DNA of 64,000 bases from Chlamydiota bacterium (GTDB lineage Bacteria > Chlamydiota > Chlamydiia > Chlamydiales > Rhabdochlamydiaceae). The notes under the pieces were generated by a model. It was not told the DNA's origin. It worked only from the letters and a program-made list of their open reading frames with translations, and made no database searches. Below are positions 22,205-38,735 of this stretch, piece by piece. The stretch covers positions 16,154 to 80,153 of the forward strand of contig JABDAY010000002.1 of assembly GCA_013288895.1 (NCBI GenBank). The letters run 5' to 3'. The position numbers and the translations under genes were made by a program. How positions within the stretch are numbered: position 1 is the stretch's first letter; every line of letters begins with the position of its first letter.

Positions 22205-23170
22205 ATGGCTGCAGCAGCGTCTTCGTTTTCATCCTCGTCTCTTGTTCCTATATATGCAGGGGAAGGGGCAGATCCAATTTGCGTAGACGCAATGGAAAGC
22301 GCACTAAATAAGATTTTAGATGATCGATATCATCGTACTTGTCATATTACCTCCTTTTGGCCTGGCCAAGAGAGGATCTGGTCAGATCCAAAATCAATAG
22401 GCGCGTTGGTTGCTCCGGGCGGTCATCTGCCCCCCATTGCGTATGAGGTGGCTTCCCAGAAAACCTCGGAGGTGTATAAGCTCAGCAATAATGATTTTAA
22501 TGCAGTCATCGTAGCCTGTGGTCAAGAGTTGGGAAAATTACTTGCTCAATATGAAATTCCTACTTATGCCAGCTGCGCAGGAGCGTTAATGACCTCTGCA
22601 AGATTTAAAGAAGCAGCTATTCCAGTACTAGAAGTTCCCATAAAAGAATCCCCCTATTTTTCTTTATTTCCAGGATTAATGTTTGCCCCATTATTTCAAT
22701 TTAAACAGAAAACCACCCATGCTCACGTTTTTCAGGTACGCAAGATTAAAATCTTAAAAACAGGGACTTCTATTTCTTGTGCTCATATTAATGGCCCTGG
22801 ATTTATTGACGTTAAAGATATACCTGGAGCAGAAATTCTCTCTGAACATGCTGAACATGAAGACTTGTCACTCATCTGGGATTTGATACGTGAAGACAGT
22901 ACGGGCGATCTTCGTTGGGTACGTATCCATCCTAGTCGTATTGCTGATAGTGTATTTTATAAAGCAAAAGATGGCGCTCCCATGGTACTCACCGGAACTC
23001 ATTTAGAAATCGATTCAAAGTCTGTTCGCAGCAAAGAATTTCGAGATGCCATGAAGATAACAGCAGAAGAGCAAAAGGATCTTGCAGCCCAGCTAGAGCC
23101 TGATGATGAAAACCGTCAAGCGGCGATGAAAAGCCATCTTGTGAGCCTTGGGCTTCGCTGTAAACCTTAA
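22205..23170 (+). CDS. Hypothetical protein, possibly class I glutamine-amidotransferase-like (BPL_N-type) fold
   Basis: LVAPGGH, YASCAGALM (nucleophile-elbow-like) and LTGTHLE. The assignment is weak. Confidence 0.4.
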   Translation: MAAAASSFSSSSLVPIYAGEGADPICVDAMESALNKILDDRYHRTCHITSFWPGQERIWSDPKSIGALVAPGGHLPPIAYEVASQKTSEVYKLSNNDFNAVIVACGQELGKLLAQYEIPTYASCAGALMTSARFKEAAIPVLEVPIKESPYFSLFPGLMFAPLFQFKQKTTHAHVFQVRKIKILKTGTSISCAHINGPGFIDVKDIPGAEILSEHAEHEDLSLIWDLIREDSTGDLRWVRIHPSRIADSVFYKAKDGAPMVLTGTHLEIDSKSVRSKEFRDAMKITAEEQKDLAAQLEPDDENRQAAMKSHLVSLGLRCKP

Positions 23171-23403: not shown

Positions 23404-23811
23404 GTGAATAAACAACACCAAATAGTAAAAGGGTATTTAGATGCGGTATCGAAAATGGACTTCGATAATTTAATGAAACTTTGTACACCTCATGCGAAAA
23501 TTCATTCTCCCCATTTTGGAACGCTTGAAATTTCTGTTCATTATCAAAAGCTATTTGCCTCTGCAAAAAGTGTAAAAATGCGGCTAAAAGACACCTTTGT
23601 AGGGACAGAAAATAAGGACGCCGTCATTGGAGATTATGTGTCAAATTGGACAATGAAAGATGGACAATCAACAGGCGAACTTGAGTTGCTCTGCCTTTTT
23701 GCGCTTAGTCCCGACGGCAAGATAGCAGAAGTGAAGATGTATTATAACAGCCCTCACGCACAAGAAGCTTTTAATCTTAGCCATCAACCCATGAGACGGA
23801 CAGGAACCTAG
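23404..23811 (+). CDS. SnoaL/NTF2-like small protein
   Basis: 135 aa with a GTG start. IVKGYLDAVSKMDFDNLMKLCTPHAKIHSP is the typical N-terminal helix pattern of SnoaL-like proteins. Confidence 0.4.
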   Translation: MNKQHQIVKGYLDAVSKMDFDNLMKLCTPHAKIHSPHFGTLEISVHYQKLFASAKSVKMRLKDTFVGTENKDAVIGDYVSNWTMKDGQSTGELELLCLFALSPDGKIAEVKMYYNSPHAQEAFNLSHQPMRRTGT

Positions 23812-23869
23812 AAAATCTTCAACTTAATTAGGTTTAATGTTATCCTCTTGCTTAGAGGGACTTATAACC

Positions 23870-24985
23870 ATGAGTGAAGAAAAGCGCGTTATTAAATTAG
23901 AGCCGCCGTTGATCAATGAAGGAACTGTTTTAAGGAGAATCACAGGTACCCGCCCCGTGAGGGAAGGGACTTTTAATATATCCCTGGACGATTCGTGTAC
24001 TGGCAAGATGATTGTGAATTGTTATGGGCATGGGGGAGCAGGTTGGACCACCTTATTCGGGTCTGTCAATAGAGCGATCGAACTTTTTCGAACTGAAACG
24101 GATCAGAGTGTTCCTCTTCGGGTTATTGGAGCCGGCTGTATGGGGCTGACCATGGCCATCGAACTAGCCCGCCAGGGATTTAAGGTGGCTGGCATCACGA
24201 CTTTGGCGCTCTACGATACCGCTTCTTGGCGAGCGGGGGGCTATTGCGCCCTTCAATCTTTAAAAACAGCGCCGGAAGAACAAGAAAATGTCAATCAGAT
24301 TTGCGCAGAAACATTTAAAGTGTATCAACAGATCGATCTTGGCGATCATCCCTACATTACCAAAGAGGCCGTAGCTTTCATGCCTGTATATTACAGTAAA
24401 AGCGCCTCCTCTGGGATCGAAGATTTTGAGGCGAAGGGTCTTGTCCCTCCTCCTGAGGATGTCATACTCGAGTTCGGAAGGGGAGTCAGGCATCCAAATT
24501 TTGTGAGAGGGATGACCTATTATATGAACACGACAAAGCTTATGCAGCAATTGCTAAGAGAAGTAGAAAGGCTTTCGATCCCTATTGAAATTGGAGAAAT
24601 TGTTGCTTATGAGGAGGTCAAAGAAGCAGTTATTTTTAATTGCAGCGGCGTCGGGGCAAGAAAATTGAACAGAGACCCTTTTTTAACCCCCGTGAGAGGG
24701 CATTTGGTTTTATTAAATCCAGCCGCAAGCGCCTCGCCTATTGACTACATGATTTTAACAAAAGTTCCCCAGGACGATACAGAAGAATATGTTTATATTA
24801 TGCCCAAAGACACCGTAGTCTTCTCTGAACACCCGCACGAAATAGACTGCCGAGCGGTATTAGGGGGCACCTTTATTCCTATCCCAGAAAATATATCGGC
24901 AAAAGAGCTTGAAGAACTCGACAGAATCGAGTTCAAAAAGCTCCTCGACCGCAACTCCCTCTTCTTCCACGGCGTTCCCTTTTAA
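23870..24985 (+). CDS. FAD-dependent D-amino-acid-oxidase (DAO) family protein with circularly permuted domain order
   Basis: The normally C-terminal segment (ITGTRPVR..IVNCYGHGGAGWTTLFGSVNRAIELF) precedes the dinucleotide-binding motif LRVIGAGCMGLTMAIELARQG. NCSGVGARKLNRDPFLTPVRGH and LGGTF follow. An alternative start is at 23837. Confidence 0.75.
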   Translation: MSEEKRVIKLEPPLINEGTVLRRITGTRPVREGTFNISLDDSCTGKMIVNCYGHGGAGWTTLFGSVNRAIELFRTETDQSVPLRVIGAGCMGLTMAIELARQGFKVAGITTLALYDTASWRAGGYCALQSLKTAPEEQENVNQICAETFKVYQQIDLGDHPYITKEAVAFMPVYYSKSASSGIEDFEAKGLVPPPEDVILEFGRGVRHPNFVRGMTYYMNTTKLMQQLLREVERLSIPIEIGEIVAYEEVKEAVIFNCSGVGARKLNRDPFLTPVRGHLVLLNPAASASPIDYMILTKVPQDDTEEYVYIMPKDTVVFSEHPHEIDCRAVLGGTFIPIPENISAKELEELDRIEFKKLLDRNSLFFHGVPF

Positions 24986-24995
24986 CGAGTAAAAG

Positions 24996-25517
24996 TTAGT
25001 TTGGCTTTACGGAGGAGCCTTTCTTCCCTGTTAGTGCTGCTGCTCCTAAACAACAACTAGTTAGGAGGATGATAAAACCTCCGCTAGCGCCAGCTCCAAA
25101 ATAGCCTATACCTACCTGTTTCATGGTCAAAATTCCTGCTATATTAAGAGCGCCAAGAGTGCAAATAACAGCGTAAACAAGGGCGGCAATGATAAAGATT
25201 GTTTTATTAAGCTTCCCGGTTTCTTTATCTTTAAAGGCGCCGCTAGCGGCATACAATAAGAAACCACTGCCAGCAAGAGCGACGACTGTTGGGCCAAACG
25301 CAACTACATTTGTAAACGAACCCTTTAGACCCGAGCACACAACACCAAGTAAAGCAATTCCCACAAGAGTTGCGATACATAGTGCGAGACCTCTTAGACA
25401 ACTAGCTCCTCTAGCCACTTGACTTGGTGTATACTTTGCGGCGGCAGCAGAACTCCCATATGCTTCAGGGCTGGCGCTCCTGTATGCTTCAGGGCTGACA
25501 CTGATTTCGGATGACAT
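24996..25517 (-). CDS. Small four-segment hydrophobic membrane protein (Inc-like), copy 1
   Basis: 173 aa: MSSEISVSPEAYRSASPEAY.., then two paired hydrophobic lobes. Paralogue of 25806-26324. Confidence 0.55.
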   Translation of the reverse strand: MSSEISVSPEAYRSASPEAYGSSAAAAKYTPSQVARGASCLRGLALCIATLVGIALLGVVCSGLKGSFTNVVAFGPTVVALAGSGFLLYAASGAFKDKETGKLNKTIFIIAALVYAVICTLGALNIAGILTMKQVGIGYFGAGASGGFIILLTSCCLGAAALTGKKGSSVKPN

Positions 25518-25628
25518 TTTTTCCTCCTTTGTGTTTAAAAAATTTTTTCTTTAACGACAGGATCCATTATAACAACACACCCATTAAGAAAAAAACACAA
25601 AGATTTTCTATTATATGATTAAAATTAG

Positions 25629-25735
25629 AAATATATTTAATCTTTATCCTGTTAGGGATTATGGTTTATAGCCAGGGATGAAATCCCTGGAATTGGATCA
25701 TAATTCATGGTGCGCCCAAGCGGGGCATACGCATC
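25629..25735 (+). repeat. R element copy 2
   Basis: See 21991-22095. It lies ~110-220 nt upstream (minus sense) of the ORF at 24996-25517. Confidence 0.6.
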
Positions 25736-25805
25736 AACTAAGCTCGCTAACGCTCGCAATTCCCTCCTCTTCCACGGCGTGCCCTTTTAACGAGTAAAAG
25801 TTAGT

Positions 25806-26324
25806 TTAGCTTTGCGAGGCGGCTTTATTCTTTGCTTCTTTTACTTTCTTCAATGCTTCTCCCATTGTTCCGTCTAGATAGCTACCAATGCAGAAGACAG
25901 GCACCGAGCTGCCCATAGCTCCGAAATAGCCTATACCTACCTGTTTCATGGTCAAAATTCCTGCTATATTAAGAGCACCCAAGGTACAAACAACAGCAGC
26001 AAAAATGGCGCAAATTATAAACACTGTTTTATTATTTCTAAAGTTACCGCCAGCGGCACTCAACAGAAAACCAGCACCAGCAAGAACGACGACTGTAAGA
26101 CCAAATGCAGCTACATTTGTAAACGAACCTGTTAGACCCGAGCACACAACAGCAAATAAGGCGACTCCCGCAAGACATGCGATACATTTTGCAAGACCTC
26201 TTAGACAACTAGCTCCTCTAGGCACTTGACTTGGTGTATGCTTTGCGGGGGCAGTAGGGTTCTTGTATGCTTCAAGGCTGGCGCTCCTGTATGCTTCAGG
26301 GCTGACACTGATTTCGGATGACAT
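25806..26324 (-). CDS. Small hydrophobic membrane protein (Inc-like), copy 2
   Basis: 172 aa. The N-terminus MSSEISVSPEAYRSASLEAY is identical in pattern to copy 1. Part of a ~805 bp tandem duplication. Confidence 0.55.
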   Translation of the reverse strand: MSSEISVSPEAYRSASLEAYKNPTAPAKHTPSQVPRGASCLRGLAKCIACLAGVALFAVVCSGLTGSFTNVAAFGLTVVVLAGAGFLLSAAGGNFRNNKTVFIICAIFAAVVCTLGALNIAGILTMKQVGIGYFGAMGSSVPVFCIGSYLDGTMGEALKKVKEAKNKAASQS

Positions 26325-26435
26325 TTTTTCCTCCTTTGTGTTTAAAAAGTTTTTTCTTTAACGACAGGATCTATTGTAACAACACACCCATTAAGAAAAA
26401 AACACAAAGATTTTCTATTATATGATTAAAATTAG

Positions 26436-26540
26436 AAATATATTTAATCTTTATCCCGTTAGGGATTATGGTTTATAGCCAGGGATGAAATCCCTGGAAT
26501 TGGATCAATTCATGATGAGACCCAGCGGGGGCGCTACCTT
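26436..26540 (+). repeat. R element copy 3
   Basis: See 21991-22095. It abuts the stop of the Pro-rich ORF. Confidence 0.6.
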
Positions 26541-27046
26541 TCGTGAACGTTTGCGTTTGCGTATCTGGCTTCCAGACGCAGATAAGTGAGGAATAAATAA
26601 TTGTTTCCACTTTCTACTTCAGGAGACAGAGGAACAAAAGACAGGGGAACTTCCGCAGCTGAAGCAGAAGCAGCGGGAGGGGAGTCCGACATGTCGTAGG
26701 CAGCTTCTGTTCTATCTGGGCTAGCAGGTGCTTGTTGAGATAATTCTGCAAGCATTCTTGCGTCCTCATCTAAGGGCTCATCAAAAAAAAGAGTCCCTGG
26801 TATATTAGTAGGGGGAAGCGGAGGCAAAGGAAGGGGAGGTTTAACAAAGGGAAAAGCAGGAAGAGGGAGGAGTGGAACATAAGGATTCCCGATTCTATTA
26901 TTAACAGAAGAAATAAAAGGGGGAGGTTGTGGAACATAAGGAAGGATATTAAAAAGGCCAGGAGGAGCAAAAGCTGGCGGAATGGGCCTTATCGGAATGG
27001 GTCTTATGGCAGCTGCAGGTTGTTCTGTTGTTAAGGAACTTGTCAT
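26534..27046 (-). CDS. Proline-rich protein (possible host-interaction effector)
   Basis: 170 aa: IRPIPIRPIPPAFAPPGLFNILPYVPQPPPF..PLLPLPAFPFVKPPLPLPPLPP. The C-terminal half is acidic. Confidence 0.5.
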   Translation of the reverse strand: MTSSLTTEQPAAAIRPIPIRPIPPAFAPPGLFNILPYVPQPPPFISSVNNRIGNPYVPLLPLPAFPFVKPPLPLPPLPPTNIPGTLFFDEPLDEDARMLAELSQQAPASPDRTEAAYDMSDSPPAASASAAEVPLSFVPLSPEVESGNNYLFLTYLRLEARYANANVHER

Positions 27047-30101: not shown

Positions 30102-30698
30102 ATGAGTACCTCATTACAGGCGTCACTGCCGTCACTACCATTACAGCCGCCACCATCGTCATTGCCGTCCAGCCCCCCAGCAGCGCACACACGCGCCCGT
30201 CTCCATGAGAATCCTATAAGTTCACCAGACCCTGCAATGACGCCAGCTGCAGGCCTTCGTGGCAGAGCAGTCCCCACTACCTCACTAAGGACACATCTTG
30301 ACTGGATCCATTCACTATCACAGCCACAACGAGCCGCCGGAGTTCAACATACTGTTTCTGATGAATATGAATGCAAATATGATCCTCCTCCTTCACTTAG
30401 TCCCGACGGTGAACGAGCCGCAGAGGAATTAGTAGGAGTGCCTTTTCCACTTCCTCCACCAATAACACCTGGGGGGACTGGAACAGATAAATGCCCTAAA
30501 TGGCTCTATGTGGCTCTCGCTGCATTGATCGTAGGGCTGGCAGCAATAGCCTTAGGAGTTGCATGCGCTTACAATGCGAACCTTCCTAGCATCCTTCTGC
30601 AACAAAAAGTTTGGATCCCCTTAGTTGCCGGCGGCGGAGCGCTAGTACTAGCTTCTTTTGCTTACCCAGTAGTTCGCTGCCTCAGAAAGCACAGCTAA
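30102..30698 (+). CDS. Inc-like protein: Pro/Ser-rich N-terminus, C-terminal bilobed hydrophobic domain
   Basis: WLYVALAALIVGLAAIALGVACAY - 12 aa - VWIPLVAGGGALVLASFAYPVV. Confidence 0.5.
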   Translation: MSTSLQASLPSLPLQPPPSSLPSSPPAAHTRARLHENPISSPDPAMTPAAGLRGRAVPTTSLRTHLDWIHSLSQPQRAAGVQHTVSDEYECKYDPPPSLSPDGERAAEELVGVPFPLPPPITPGGTGTDKCPKWLYVALAALIVGLAAIALGVACAYNANLPSILLQQKVWIPLVAGGGALVLASFAYPVVRCLRKHS

Positions 30699-32200
30699 GG
30701 TTCTTTGGCGGGTTCGGCTTCAGGCTCGGGGGCAGGGGGAGTAGAGAAGGAGAACTGCTTGTTGAGGGAGCGGACGGATAAGATCCAGAAGAGGACTGTG
30801 CAGGCGACAACTGGTATGAGAAAATGGGTGATCGATAGAACTGAACCGGTGCCTGCGATTTGGATGAGAATGATTTGAAGCCAGGCGGCGCCCGATTTTC
30901 CGAGGCGTGAGCCGACAACGTCAATCGCAGCTTTCCCTTTAACCTTTGATTCTGGATCTAATGGGATAAACGCCATCTCTTTTGTCTGGTCGAAAAATGT
31001 GTATTTCATGATCTTGCTAATCCCGTTTTGAAATGCTCCAAAAAGAACAATCGCTACAAGAGAGCCTGGGCCTAAACTGTCCCGGAAAAGGAAGAGGAAC
31101 AAAAAGAGAAGGCTTGCAAAACCGATAAAAATAGGGGGCAGCTGAGCGGAAAAATGCCAGCCCATGCGCCGGAAAACGATGCCAGAACAAAACAGGGAAA
31201 CAAGGAAGGTGCAGACTCCAACCCAAGAGGTGATACCTGCCATGAACGTTTGATATGAGGCGGTGTCGGGGTAGACCATTTTTACGTTGGCTTTCCAGGT
31301 GACCTCAATAAGATTAAGTGTCAGGCCATAGGCTATGACGATAATGGCGATGTATCTGAGGGGTTTTGAGCGGTAAATAAATTTTATACTTTCTTTCAGG
31401 CTAAGCTTAGTTTTTTGTTCAATTTCCGCGTCTTTACGTTCAGGTTGAAAGAGACGGGGATCTTTGACAATAGAACGGGTAAGTCTCCAGTGGAGGATGA
31501 GGATTGCAGCTCCGAAACACAAAATACAAAGAATGATATGACGGAGCGAGGTCTCAAAATCGGCCCCTAGATGACCTTTTGTGAAATAAATCACAATCGG
31601 GCCTGTAAAAACCATCGCCAAATCGCCGCCGGCCAAGAAAATATTATAGCTTCTTTTAGCTTCATTCAGGTTGCAGATATGGTTTACAAACCCCCAAAAC
31701 AGGAGAAAAAAGGCGATCTGCCCCCACAGCTCAGAAACGACGAAGAAGAGAGACTGGATCCAATTGCGGTAGATAGAGATCCAATGGCTGTTTTCTTGGC
31801 CTAAATAGCCCAGAAGCTTATCTGCGCTCGCGTGCGGGGATAGGGTCTCCAAGTTGGGGTATAGGACAAACCCGTAAAGAAAGAAAAACATCATAAAAAA
31901 TATGATAATGCCATAGAACAGGGTGGAGCGCTTAAAAATATTAGTTAGCTTTGAATAAAGGAGGGCAGTGAGCATAAAGACGGGCAGGACAATCCACCCC
32001 TTTAAAACGGGGATCACCTCAGCCCCGCCCCCTCGAGCGGTAACGACAGAAGCATCCTTCATTGTCGTGACAAACCCGTAGACCATTGCAATAAAAAATT
32101 TGATAAAAAAGAGGGGCGCGATCTTCTTAAGCTCAAACCGTTGGATCGGCCAAAACTGTTCTCTCCATCTGCGCAGTAAAGATTTTCCTTTCTCTTGCAT
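30695..32200 (-). CDS. Nucleotide transporter, NTT/Tlc (ATP:ADP antiporter) family
   Basis: 501 aa, ~12 TM. The N-terminus RFELKKIAPLFFIKFFIAMVYGFVTTMKDASVV is characteristic of chlamydial and rickettsial Npt/Tlc proteins. Confidence 0.88.
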   Translation of the reverse strand: MQEKGKSLLRRWREQFWPIQRFELKKIAPLFFIKFFIAMVYGFVTTMKDASVVTARGGGAEVIPVLKGWIVLPVFMLTALLYSKLTNIFKRSTLFYGIIIFFMMFFFLYGFVLYPNLETLSPHASADKLLGYLGQENSHWISIYRNWIQSLFFVVSELWGQIAFFLLFWGFVNHICNLNEAKRSYNIFLAGGDLAMVFTGPIVIYFTKGHLGADFETSLRHIILCILCFGAAILILHWRLTRSIVKDPRLFQPERKDAEIEQKTKLSLKESIKFIYRSKPLRYIAIIVIAYGLTLNLIEVTWKANVKMVYPDTASYQTFMAGITSWVGVCTFLVSLFCSGIVFRRMGWHFSAQLPPIFIGFASLLFLFLFLFRDSLGPGSLVAIVLFGAFQNGISKIMKYTFFDQTKEMAFIPLDPESKVKGKAAIDVVGSRLGKSGAAWLQIILIQIAGTGSVLSITHFLIPVVACTVLFWILSVRSLNKQFSFSTPPAPEPEAEPAKEP

Positions 32201-36021: not shown

Positions 36022-38634
36022 CTAAAAACTGTATTCTAAATGGACGTCGCCCTTTTGGGTGGCGACCTGGCCGTTAAGCTCGGCGCTGTAGCGCGCTCCT
36101 AACGACAGGTTGTTCTCTAGTAGCAAGTCTAATTCAGCGCCAGGAGACACCATCGTGATAGACTTATTCCAGCTTCTTACCTTGAAGTCTCCCTCCTGAC
36201 CTACGAAAGAAGACTTGTAATGGGAAATGTTCAAATAGGATTCATTCACGCAGCTCACCCAAATGGTGGGAATAAATAGGGGACACCCAAATGCTCCAGA
36301 ATGGGACAAGCTCAATCCCGCTTCGCTGCGAAGCATGTTGGAATTTTTTGCATGCACATCTAAATCTAAGCTCAGGGCCCCTTTTTCTTTAAAACCATTC
36401 TGACGCAAATACAAATAGTCGACGCTGGCAAAAGGACCAAACTCATAGTCGCAATGCTCAAAGGCGTATCCGCCTGCTAGATGACCCGTAAAATCATATC
36501 CTTTTGAATCGTGTTTGGCGGTGCGATCTACGGTAGGAAAGTTAATGAAACGAGAAGCGTCATAAGCATTGATGCCGCCCACTGCCGCAGCTTCGACGTA
36601 ATAATGGGCTTGTATCCAATTACCATAAATGCCCAAATGACCGCTATTGATATTTCCTCTGCCCCGATGGTGCTTCCACTTGATATGCTCTTTATCGTAA
36701 CCGCCACCGATTCCTAAAAGGAAACCGTTTTGAAAGGTATAATCCAGGCCGCCTAAAATCCCTATAGCATCTGCACGGAAGCCCACTTGTTCTCCCACTC
36801 TGTCTTGTTCGATACAATAGCCAAAAGGCTCAAGCCAGGCATTGAGTTGATTGCACTCACAGCAAGGGTTAATATTCATGGGGCAATTTGTTGATAGACG
36901 ATGATTAAAGATCTTGGAACCCAAGCTGCTTGTGTTTGCATTTAATAACTCAAATGCTCCGAAAATAGCTGGATGCAATTGATCGAGGGCAGCTGTAGGG
37001 TCGCTTAATGTTGTAAGAACGGTGCCGACGCTTAGAAGGTCAGGATCAGAATCCAAGTCGGCTGCTAGCAAATAACTGAGAACTTGCTGGGGATTATAAT
37101 GATTTACTGAAGCTGTAAAAATAAGCCCTGCATTTAAATAAGTTAAAACCACGGAATCAGAAAGATAATCAATACCAAAATTTAGTAGATAGCCAGCAGG
37201 GTTGGTAACAACTATTGGTTCGAATTTCCCTATCACTTCTCCAGCAGTTAAAATGGTGTAGGTTGTGCCCTTAATGTATGTTCCAGGAGCAGGGATGATA
37301 TTTAACTCGCCCGCCAGGTTTGCGACTCCTGTAACTATAATCTGATCTGTTCCTCCTGCAGCATTGATTTCGTCTTGATAACCACCCGTTGCGTATTGGG
37401 TATACGTTCCTTCAACCGTTATTGATCCAATGCTATTTCCAGGAGCTATTGTTCCATAGTTTGCTACATTGCCAACATATCCGTAACCCCCTAACGTTCC
37501 GGTGGGGTCGATCGTTATCAGGGAGGATGAAGCAATCGAACCATCGACAATCAATGTGCCCCCAGTGTTAATAAACGTTGGCCCTGAGTAAGTTTGCATA
37601 TTTGTAAGAGTGCATTGTCCTTCTTGTATGGTAACTTCGCCTAAGGCCATATCGCTGATGACACCATCAAAAGTAGTGTTCGCGCCGTTAGATCCAATGA
37701 TGAGCACTCCTCCACCAAGAGTTACACTTCCATCTCCAGAAAGGCCTCCTATTATTTGAATAGTCCCATTCAAATCAAAGGTCGCCATACTCTCAATTTG
37801 AACAGTACCCACTGGCGGAATAGCATATGAAACCCCAGCCTGCAAAATTCCTGGAGAAACCACCGTTCCTCCTGTGTATGTATTGACCCCATTCAAAGTC
37901 AACATTCCCATTCCACTTACAGTAAGTTGTCCAGGTCCGCTCATCACTGTGGTGTCGGTTGTAACTGTCATACTGTTAGTCCCAATAGTGAGTCCTCCAG
38001 GTTCAAGAACAAAATTTCCTGGCGTGAAACCTGTAATAGAAGGGATGCCCATAGGAAACAATTGTAGAATCCCTCCATCGAAACTGGCGCTACCAGTTGT
38101 CGTTGTTGCGAGAAGAGCTGTAAGTAGTTGTCCCCCACTACTTATATTCAATGTCCCTGTACCACCACTAATCCCTAAACCAACTGCAATTGAGACTACA
38201 CCTCCTTCAGAACTAATTGTAAAATTGCCAATACCATTGTTGCCAATAAAGAGCGAGTTGGTTTCAAGCAGCCATTCAGAGCCTGCGCCGGTCACAGTTC
38301 CGTTTCCTGTGGTCCCGGATGAATAGCCAAAATATGCCTCGGCGTTACTAGTTAAAGAAGCTCCGTCTTGAATCGTGAACGAAGCATCAGTTGCAGTCGT
38401 GTTACCAACTATTACCTGTCCAACATTTAAAGATCCTGAACTAAGATTGCAGGGAGTATTGATGTCAATAGTTGCCGTGTCCGTAGACATACTCGGATAT
38501 CCTGGAGTATCCCAATTTCCTGTCGTAGTCCATTCATTACCTCCAGCACCATCCGTCCAATTGTAAGATGTAGCAAACCCGAATTGGGATGCAAGAATAC
38601 AAAGAATGCTTAATCTAATATGTGTTGTAACCAT
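36022..38634 (-). CDS. Autotransporter outer-membrane protein: Gly/Thr-rich beta-helical passenger with a C-terminal beta-barrel
   Basis: Start at MVTTHIRLSILCILASQFGFA (38634). Repeats such as GGTGTLNISSGGQLL and LTLNGVNTYTGGTVVSPGILQAG. The barrel domain ends ..DVHLEYSF. Confidence 0.8.
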   Translation of the reverse strand: MVTTHIRLSILCILASQFGFATSYNWTDGAGGNEWTTTGNWDTPGYPSMSTDTATIDINTPCNLSSGSLNVGQVIVGNTTATDASFTIQDGASLTSNAEAYFGYSSGTTGNGTVTGAGSEWLLETNSLFIGNNGIGNFTISSEGGVVSIAVGLGISGGTGTLNISSGGQLLTALLATTTTGSASFDGGILQLFPMGIPSITGFTPGNFVLEPGGLTIGTNSMTVTTDTTVMSGPGQLTVSGMGMLTLNGVNTYTGGTVVSPGILQAGVSYAIPPVGTVQIESMATFDLNGTIQIIGGLSGDGSVTLGGGVLIIGSNGANTTFDGVISDMALGEVTIQEGQCTLTNMQTYSGPTFINTGGTLIVDGSIASSSLITIDPTGTLGGYGYVGNVANYGTIAPGNSIGSITVEGTYTQYATGGYQDEINAAGGTDQIIVTGVANLAGELNIIPAPGTYIKGTTYTILTAGEVIGKFEPIVVTNPAGYLLNFGIDYLSDSVVLTYLNAGLIFTASVNHYNPQQVLSYLLAADLDSDPDLLSVGTVLTTLSDPTAALDQLHPAIFGAFELLNANTSSLGSKIFNHRLSTNCPMNINPCCECNQLNAWLEPFGYCIEQDRVGEQVGFRADAIGILGGLDYTFQNGFLLGIGGGYDKEHIKWKHHRGRGNINSGHLGIYGNWIQAHYYVEAAAVGGINAYDASRFINFPTVDRTAKHDSKGYDFTGHLAGGYAFEHCDYEFGPFASVDYLYLRQNGFKEKGALSLDLDVHAKNSNMLRSEAGLSLSHSGAFGCPLFIPTIWVSCVNESYLNISHYKSSFVGQEGDFKVRSWNKSITMVSPGAELDLLLENNLSLGARYSAELNGQVATQKGDVHLEYSF

Positions 38635-38735
38635 AGTTCTTCCAAGATAGTATTTTACAGTTGTACAGGGCTTTTTTTTTGCGGTCAATAGAATTTAGAT
38701 TTGCTTGAAAAGCGGGGAGTGATAGGCTGTGAAGT

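Follow-up and report, generated by a model that had tools for sequence, protein, structure and literature searches.

Inverted block order in a chlamydial D-amino-acid oxidase-like protein points to a natural circular permutation of a flavoenzyme fold

The 64,000-nucleotide (nt) stretch of a Rhabdochlamydiaceae genome analyzed here (contig JABDAY010000002.1; the whole stretch is called the window) carries a gene for a protein related to D-amino-acid oxidase (DAAO) in which the conserved blocks of the family stand in inverted order. An intact open reading frame (ORF) of 382 amino acids (aa) runs from 23837 to 24985 on the plus strand and ends in a TAA stop codon (24983-24985). Since the reading frame is closed by a stop 3 codons ahead of 23837 and a Shine-Dalgarno-like GAGGG, as read from the DNA, lies at 23855-23859, 10 nt 5′ of the ATG at 23870, the true coding sequence (CDS) probably starts at 23870 (Met12) and gives a 371-aa product. 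An earlier note on this DNA, made from the letters alone, had placed the start at 23870, and this is the likelier of the two. Homologues without a signal peptide begin 2 to 3 residues ahead of a conserved VKLxPP. Residue numbers below are those of the 382-aa ORF, counted from 23837, with Met12 as the codon at 23870. The protein reads TGTRPVR at residues 36-42, CYGHGGAGW at 62-70, and RVIGAGCMG, which holds GxGxxG, at 95-103; its C-terminal end reads ...DRNSLFFHGVPF. The peptides quoted in the earlier note were found as described, and the protein ends where the relocated segment would normally start. The features of the gene are as follows.

23837 to 24985, plus strand: longest ORF, 382 aa, for the putative permuted DAAO-like flavoprotein (Pfam DAO match; full-length homologues at 51-59% identity).
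23855 to 23859, plus strand: Shine-Dalgarno-like GAGGG, recognized by sequence only.
23870 to 24985, plus strand: probable true CDS, 371 aa, no signal peptide (stop upstream, GAGGG, starts of homologues).
23894 to 24091, plus strand: relocated segment, residues 20-85, homologous to the ~65 residues that close canonical DAAO (alignments to DAAO).
23942 to 23962, plus strand: TGTRPVR motif (alignment to human DAAO; invariant columns).
24023 to 24043, plus strand: YGHGGAG motif (alignment to human DAAO; invariant columns).
24092 to 24115, plus strand: linker of ~8 residues (86-93, TETDQSVP), a loop between helix 69-85 and strand 94-97 (unaligned gap; variable columns).
24116 to 24958, plus strand: main body, residues 94-374, collinear with canonical DAAO (hhalign; Pfam DAO).
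24128 to 24145, plus strand: GAGCMG, the GxGxxG dinucleotide-binding motif, residues 98-103 (alignments; invariant glycines).
24794 to 24796, plus strand: Tyr320 codon (aligns with human DAAO Tyr228; invariant).
24950 to 24985, plus strand: 3′-terminal 36 nt of the gene, which fall in copy A of an ~800-bp tandem duplication (repeat alignment) and are no part of the permutation.

In canonical DAAO, GxGxxG lies within the first ~12 residues and a block with GxRPxR and H-x-Y-G-H-G-G comes last. In the window protein GxGxxG stands at residues 98-103, after the block that is normally C-terminal, and the sequence is collinear with the family only after it has been un-permuted. It belongs to the DAO superfamily, with a Pfam DAO (PF01266) match of 71.8 bits (cutoff, 27.9; E = 1e-19). 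That match falls in two stretches, the main one placing residues 96-346 on profile positions 4-271 of 353; the N-terminal segment alone matches positions 291-345. When the protein was compared with the PDB by phmmer, residues 20-85 aligned with human DAAO residues 265-331 (RLEPTL...TGFRPVR...HNYGHGGYG...AAKLF), residues 96-109 with 5-18, which hold the GxGxxG motif, and residues 202-325 with 117-233. A family profile was made from an alignment of 42 members of the chlamydial-type permuted family (alignment A1, also the source of the invariant columns cited below). Its best single stretch against the PDB placed profile positions 38-98 on residues 320-380 of Rasamsonia DAAO (7ct4; domain i-E-value, 1e-5), and other stretches of the same structure were matched by positions 98-144 (residues 23-75) and 270-331 (residues 210-268).

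The A1 alignment was also compared by hhalign with 36 bacterial DAAO-like proteins of canonical order, taken from genome loci of Actinomycetota. Two pieces were obtained: query 93-374 on template 4-227 (probability, 99%; E = 9e-18) and query 24-85 on template 231-286 (probability, 96.7%; E = 4e-10). The pieces do not overlap, and the break falls at template columns 227/231 with no loss and no duplication, as in a circular permutant. In silico un-permutation, in which residues 13-88 were placed after residues 89-382, turned the Pfam DAO match into a single contiguous one (residues 8-357 on profile positions 4-345 of 353). Five independent comparisons agree on the swapped order, far beyond chance, and confirm it. 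The order described in the earlier note, with the GxRPxR/GHGG block ahead of GxGxxG, was borne out by phmmer, Pfam, the A1 profile, and hhalign, which gave the swapped DAO-family matches that the note had asked to see. The note had also reasoned that the idea would fail if the N-terminal segment were not homologous to the DAO C terminus; the phmmer, 7ct4 profile, and hhalign alignments show that it is homologous.

A six-frame motif scan of the whole 64-kb window gave a single block with GxRPxR plus GHGG, the one at the 5′ end of the oxidase-like gene; it revealed neither a second copy of the GHGG segment nor any other DAO-like fragment. The two genes upstream, both on the plus strand, encode a 321-aa protein with a biotin-protein-ligase N-terminal (BPL_N) domain (22205-23170) and a 135-aa SnoaL-like protein (23404-23811). 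The in-frame stop upstream of the ORF and the unrelated SnoaL-like gene rule out an upstream exon or ORF that would restore the normal order; no GxGxxG ORF is present there, and the permutation survives this objection as well.

The same arrangement was found throughout the closest relatives. Each of the 120 best homologues in the databases spans the full protein (query coverage, 90-100%; identity, 51-59%; length, 344-441 aa) and carries a GHGG-type motif ~35 residues before GxGxxG. Most are from Chlamydiota, with genome loci in Rhabdochlamydiaceae, Simkaniaceae, Parachlamydiales, and other Chlamydiota metagenome-assembled genomes (MAGs), including chromosome-level assemblies. Beyond Chlamydiota, permuted relatives occur in one Babeliales genome (35% identity) and one "Pseudomonadota" MAG (38%). 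An exhaustive search of 1.84 billion cluster representatives returned 3067 matches, among them 160 clusters (at 50% identity) with E ≤ 1e-30 and 1138 with E ≤ 1e-10. Explicit permuted motif order was seen in 94 of the top 149 new representatives and canonical order in none, the remainder being fragments or motif variants. The identical protein was also found on a contig from a second assembly source, preceded by the same pair of upstream genes.

Some relatives are present in more than one copy. Genome OY969554.1 has two unlinked permuted copies (L006 and L029), and a Chlamydiae MAG locus (L016) has two tandem, overlapping permuted paralogues (4823-5989 and 5986-7146). The upstream copy at L016 is degenerate, with GHGSKG for GHGGSG and with the equivalents of Tyr320 and GGT lost.

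Active-site and flavin adenine dinucleotide (FAD)-site residues were compared with those of human DAAO, in which we take Arg283 to bind the substrate α-carboxylate, Tyr228 to be the active-site tyrosine, and Tyr224 to be the tyrosine of the active-site lid. R39 of TGTRPVR aligns with Arg283, Y320 with Tyr228, and G67 of YGHGGAG with Gly313, so that the window protein has an equivalent of Arg283, Tyr228, and Gly313 alike. All three residues are invariant in A1. So are P40 and R42; G64, G66, and G69; T72, L73, G75, and S76 further along the relocated block; and G98, G100, and G103, the glycines of GxGxxG. AAG(Y/W) and PVRGH motifs are also conserved in the chlamydial-type family. Because R39, Y320, and G67 match these residues of human DAAO and are invariant, the protein is likely an FAD-dependent amino-acid oxidase.

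An AlphaFold2 model with A1 as input had a mean predicted local distance difference test (pLDDT) score of 90.9 and a predicted template modeling (pTM) score of 0.89. In the model, the relocated block (pLDDT, 82-97) forms strands 31-42, 47-51, and 58-63 followed by helix 69-85. An 8-residue loop then leads into the Rossmann unit (strand 94-97, helix 101-112, strand 117-122), and the C-terminal end consists of strand 340-348 and a long helix, 355-378. In a Foldseek search of the PDB, DAAO and D-aspartate oxidase filled the first 33 places (E, 3e-10 to 6e-8); amadoriases, dehydrogenases of proline and glycerol-3-phosphate, sarcosine oxidase, and glycine oxidase ranked lower. The template modeling (TM) scores were ~0.5, a value that we attribute to the use of a sequential aligner, which could cover only one of the two blocks, on a permutant. 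The predicted fold is closest to that of DAAO. The earlier note had proposed a comparison of this kind, which returned a confident model with DAAO and D-aspartate oxidase as its nearest solved structures.

From these data, we consider it highly probable (roughly 0.88) that the gene product is functional and is a natural circular permutant within the DAAO branch of FAD-dependent oxidoreductases. The ~65 residues that come last in canonical DAAO are encoded first here: the strand with the carboxylate-binding arginine, two strands of the FAD domain, and the GHGG loop with the flavin-packing helix. A linker of ~8 residues joins that helix to the Rossmann β-α-β unit that opens canonical proteins, and the last element of the chain is the helix that in canonical enzymes comes just before the relocated block. 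The three-dimensional fold and active-site geometry are expected to be those of DAAO, with the chain connectivity alone changed. The predicted activity is FAD-dependent oxidation of an α-amino acid (a D-amino acid or one of glycine type) to the imino or keto acid.

Several points weigh against this reading. Tyr224 of human DAAO is not conserved and aligns with E316 in the phmmer alignment; a nearly invariant Y318 lies two residues away, and the alignment at Tyr224 could be shifted. The acidic residue that ends Rossmann strand β2 is replaced, the family reading ITTK versus ARD/ARE in canonical proteins and in a second permuted clade, the xanthomonad type described below. The active site and FAD contacts may thus differ from the canonical ones. 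The position of the N-terminal block at the canonical C-terminal site in three dimensions is predicted from homology, the order of secondary structures, and the confident model. FAD binding, substrate, and oxidase-versus-dehydrogenase chemistry are predictions from sequence for all members. Genomic context gives no functional clue, because the neighborhoods are not conserved: the BPL_N and SnoaL-like genes lie beside the oxidase-like gene in none of the 44 related loci, and BLAST of the window neighbors against these loci, together with all-against-all clustering, found no conserved neighborhood, only a generic ATP-binding cassette (ABC)-ATPase cluster in 7 loci.

The alternative that survives best accepts the permutation and questions the activity: the enzyme would act on glycine or sarcosine, an opine, a D-2-hydroxy acid, or a cell-wall D-amino compound, or would be a dehydrogenase. 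We do not favor this possibility, but it carries substantial weight. Because Tyr224 aligns with E316, the acidic residue of β2 is replaced, and identity to characterized DAAO is below 20% (17-20% over the comparisons), the substrate could be other than a standard D-amino acid. The xanthomonad-type clade has no Tyr228 equivalent, and most relatives appear to be exported, unlike the known cytosolic or peroxisomal DAAOs. NCBIfam yielded no equivalog; its best match, the glycine oxidase ThiO model (TIGR02352), scored 37 bits against an equivalog cutoff of 250.8, which places the protein outside ThiO. On the other side, the chlamydial clade keeps the carboxylate-binding arginine, the tyrosine, and the counterpart of Gly313 without variation, and DAAO and D-aspartate oxidase are structurally nearer than glycine oxidase, sarcosine oxidase, or the dehydrogenases.

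Among known enzymes, DAAO and D-aspartate oxidase come nearest. They (EC 1.4.3.3 and 1.4.3.1; PF01266; 2du8, 1c0k, 7ct4, 6rkf, and 9vpf) resemble the window protein in predicted fold, providing its best Foldseek matches, and in all sequence blocks: GxGxxG, the AAGxW-like motif, PVRG(Q/H), GxRPxR, YGHGGxG, and the Arg283, Tyr228, and Gly313 equivalents. The window protein differs in having the C-terminal ~65 residues first, in its low identity, and in lacking both Tyr224 and a peroxisomal signal. The canonical-order DAAO-like proteins of Actinomycetota (Kribbella, Nocardioides, and Micromonospora; L045-L080), a group that we take to include the characterized bacterial DAAOs of Arthrobacter, Streptomyces, and Rubrobacter, share the HCYGHGGxG signature and ~25% whole-length identity after order correction. 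They differ in being ~308 aa long, with GxGxxG at ~5 and GHGG at ~284, and have no signal peptide. ThiO, sarcosine oxidase, and D-arginine dehydrogenase share the PF01266 superfamily and the mode of FAD binding but have canonical order and match the model less well than DAAO does.

The export signals of the relatives bear on where such enzymes would act. A Sec-like N-terminal signal peptide with an AxA-type end (e.g., ...FALQA|NEPQIVK) and no twin arginine is present in 81 of the 120 best chlamydial-type homologues, and the Babeliales and "Pseudomonadota" MAG copies (L028 and L030) also have a Sec-like signal. The window copy and a few other homologues have none. Because it lacks the signal peptide borne by most of its chlamydial relatives, the window copy is probably cytoplasmic. 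A Sec-exported enzyme of this type would have to acquire FAD outside the cytoplasm.

More distant permuted proteins were found among genome matches in Luteimonas, Caulobacterales, Gemmatimonadaceae, Myxococcota, Hoeflea, and Verrucomicrobiota. When the Luteimonas kalidii protein served as query, at least 3582 clusters (at 90% identity) matched, and all of the 120 best matches were permuted. Members of this xanthomonad-type clade, whose alignment is called A2, include proteins of Xanthomonas campestris, X. euvesicatoria, X. vesicatoria, Stenotrophomonas, Luteimonas, and Phreatobacter (loci L040, L042, L043, and L044). Database labels for them read "D-amino-acid oxidase" or "FAD-dependent oxidoreductase" and do not mention the rearrangement. 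An RRxFL twin-arginine (Tat) motif lies near the N terminus in 117 of the 120 best matches, and R12 and R13 are invariant in A2. The A2 consensus does not conserve the equivalent of Tyr228. An AlphaFold2 model of the Luteimonas protein (pLDDT, 83.9) was confident outside the signal peptide and matched DAAO and D-aspartate oxidase first (E, ~1e-13).

The two clades can be compared directly. A1 and A2 are collinear over the relocated block, the linker, and the Rossmann unit (probability, 99.8%; E = 8e-30), a better match than that of A1 to its canonical relatives (9e-18 plus 4e-10). The clades share block order, cut point, short linker, and predicted DAAO fold, and differ in that they are only ~27% identical and that the xanthomonad type has a Tat signal, does not conserve the Tyr228 equivalent, and matches a PROSITE-like signature that the chlamydial clade does not. 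The signature, the PROSITE-like DAAO pattern [LIVM](2)-H-[NHA]-Y-G-x-[GSA](2)-x-G-x5-G-x-A, matched 108 of 120 xanthomonad-type proteins near the N terminus, none of 120 chlamydial-type proteins (which read IVNCYGHGGAGW...G.V), and none of the 36 canonical actinobacterial proteins. Because the canonical proteins fail it while permuted ones pass, such a strict pattern is a poor criterion of membership.

Since the two clades are collinear across the junction, are cut at the same point, and have a short linker in common, the sequences argue for one old permutation event behind both clades. Judged from these comparisons, the permutation is an old inherited family trait common to thousands of bacterial proteins. 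The permuted order might instead have arisen independently in the chlamydial-type and xanthomonad-type clades, as the identity of only ~27% and the different export signals, Sec-like versus Tat, would allow. We regard separate origins as improbable, given the coincidence of cut point and linker and a match across the junction that is stronger than the one to canonical proteins.

A third permuted group comprises proteins of ~540 aa from Alphaproteobacteria, Myxococcota, Hoeflea, and Verrucomicrobiota (L037, 5809-7449; L038, 5965-7572; L039, 5812-7464; L041, 5620-7521). Their N-terminal arrangement is the same, and ~170 extra residues are inserted between the PxxGHL strand and the last conserved strand, GGT.

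A broader proposal is that these proteins form a large, ancient, unrecognized, and mainly extracytoplasmic permuted branch of DAAO, exported by Tat in Xanthomonadaceae, other Proteobacteria, and Gemmatimonadota and by Sec in Chlamydiota and Babeliales. As oxidases of amino acids, possibly of D-amino acids, they would work in the periplasm or after secretion and take part in the turnover of cell-wall D-amino acids or in interaction with a host, with the window gene as a signal-less cytoplasmic member. We hold the chances for and against this proposal to be evenly balanced. To our knowledge, characterized DAAOs are cytosolic or peroxisomal, while most permuted relatives carry Sec-like or Tat signals.

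A further alternative is that the N-terminal block is the remnant of a dead paralogue, fused to a C-terminally truncated DAO and lying outside the fold, so that the protein would be crippled or would not bind flavin. The missing acidic residue of β2 in the chlamydial clade, the lack of Tyr224, and the visible degeneration of one tandem paralogue at L016 are in keeping with decay. The block is nevertheless among the most conserved parts of the protein, with 11 invariant residues from R39 to S76; it is modeled with high confidence and has been kept across phyla at 25-38% overall identity, unlike a decaying remnant. We therefore consider a vestigial fusion very unlikely. An assembly artefact or pseudogene, in which a misjoin or frameshift put the 3′ part of a DAO gene before a 3′-truncated copy, is effectively refuted: although the last 36 nt of the gene lie within a repeat and the short second-source contig stops ~140 nt past the gene, suggesting that assemblers struggle directly downstream, the junction lies at residues 86-93 of an intact ORF, away from the repeat, the order recurs in all 120 best homologues from many independent assemblies including chromosome-level MAGs, the catalytic residues of both parts are invariant in a confidently modeled protein, and the second-source contig carries the identical protein and upstream genes, with no other DAO-like fragment in the window. 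The assembly error that the earlier note had feared is excluded by the same second-source contig and shared order.

The repeat at the 3′ end belongs to a neighboring event. Positions 24950-25011 and 25755-25816 are 92% identical. They are the left end of a longer tandem duplication of ~800 bp (copies A and B, 24950-25745 and 25755-26550), whose left boundary falls 36 nt inside the 3′ end of the oxidase-like gene. The duplication holds two paralogous membrane-protein genes on the minus strand, convergent with the oxidase-like gene, at 24996-25517 (173 aa) and 25806-26324 (172 aa). Their coding regions are 85-86% identical and their upstream (promoter) regions nearly identical. In both proteins, hydrophobic segments come in pairs, which recalls the inclusion-membrane (Inc) proteins of chlamydiae. 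The earlier note had reported a repeat of the last ~40 nt of the gene at 25750-25789; the repeat is real, with the corrected coordinates given above. The note's suggestion of a recombinogenic locus did not hold, as the repeat belongs to the tandem duplication of the neighboring gene. A recent rearrangement at this locus is ruled out by the same boundary, and because the permutation is common to Chlamydiota families, Babeliales, and Proteobacteria, it long predates the locus.

Tandem duplication followed by trimming of both ends is the textbook model for circular permutation. The earlier note had put forward duplication with double truncation, and this standard route is a plausible origin here; no intermediate was found to document it. 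Duplication intermediates (proteins with two GHGG blocks, fused tandem DAOs, or unpermuted-to-permuted forms) were absent from 80 genome loci and 149 cluster representatives. The tandem pair at L016 was considered and rejected as an intermediate, both paralogues being already permuted, and so were the ~540-aa proteins, which have an insertion rather than a second copy. A residual terminal overlap (C-terminal ...RNSLFF and N-terminal ...KLEPPL over the canonical (R/E)L(E/V)PxL) spans a few residues, is statistically not meaningful, and is not claimed.

Other natural circular permutations include concanavalin A versus favin, swaposins, DNA methyltransferases, and transaldolases. In these, as proposed here, the fold is kept, the termini are moved, and the old termini are linked; their folds differ from that of DAAO. 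No account of a permuted DAAO or PF01266 protein turned up in full-text searches of the literature, and NCBIfam has no model for either permuted clade. A widespread circular permutation of a classic flavoenzyme fold has apparently gone undescribed.

DAAO is among the most studied flavoenzymes, as a model of flavin catalysis, a drug target, and a biocatalyst. A conserved natural permutant would indicate, as the models suggest, that the C-terminal FAD and substrate block can come first without loss of the fold. Studies of folding and protein engineering gain from it a ready natural test case, whose new termini are available for fusions or immobilization. In thousands of proteins, among them those of the plant pathogen Xanthomonas, standard collinear alignments will put the catalytic arginine and the GHGG loop in the wrong place or leave them out, with effects on annotation and phylogenies. 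The predicted export signals on most members point to an unstudied class of periplasmic or secreted DAAO-like oxidases.

Elsewhere in the window, all on the minus strand, lie genes for a TLC ATP/ADP translocase (30695-32200) and an 888-aa autotransporter (36022-38688), and a 2981-aa ORF (54866-63811) whose sole Pfam match is DUF3638, a gene content typical of an obligate intracellular, chlamydia-like organism. Directly beyond the duplicated membrane-protein genes, a 170-aa proline-rich ORF (26534-27046, minus strand; PIRPIPPAFAPPG..., with LPLPPLPP) has no Pfam match, and its product could be a secreted effector.

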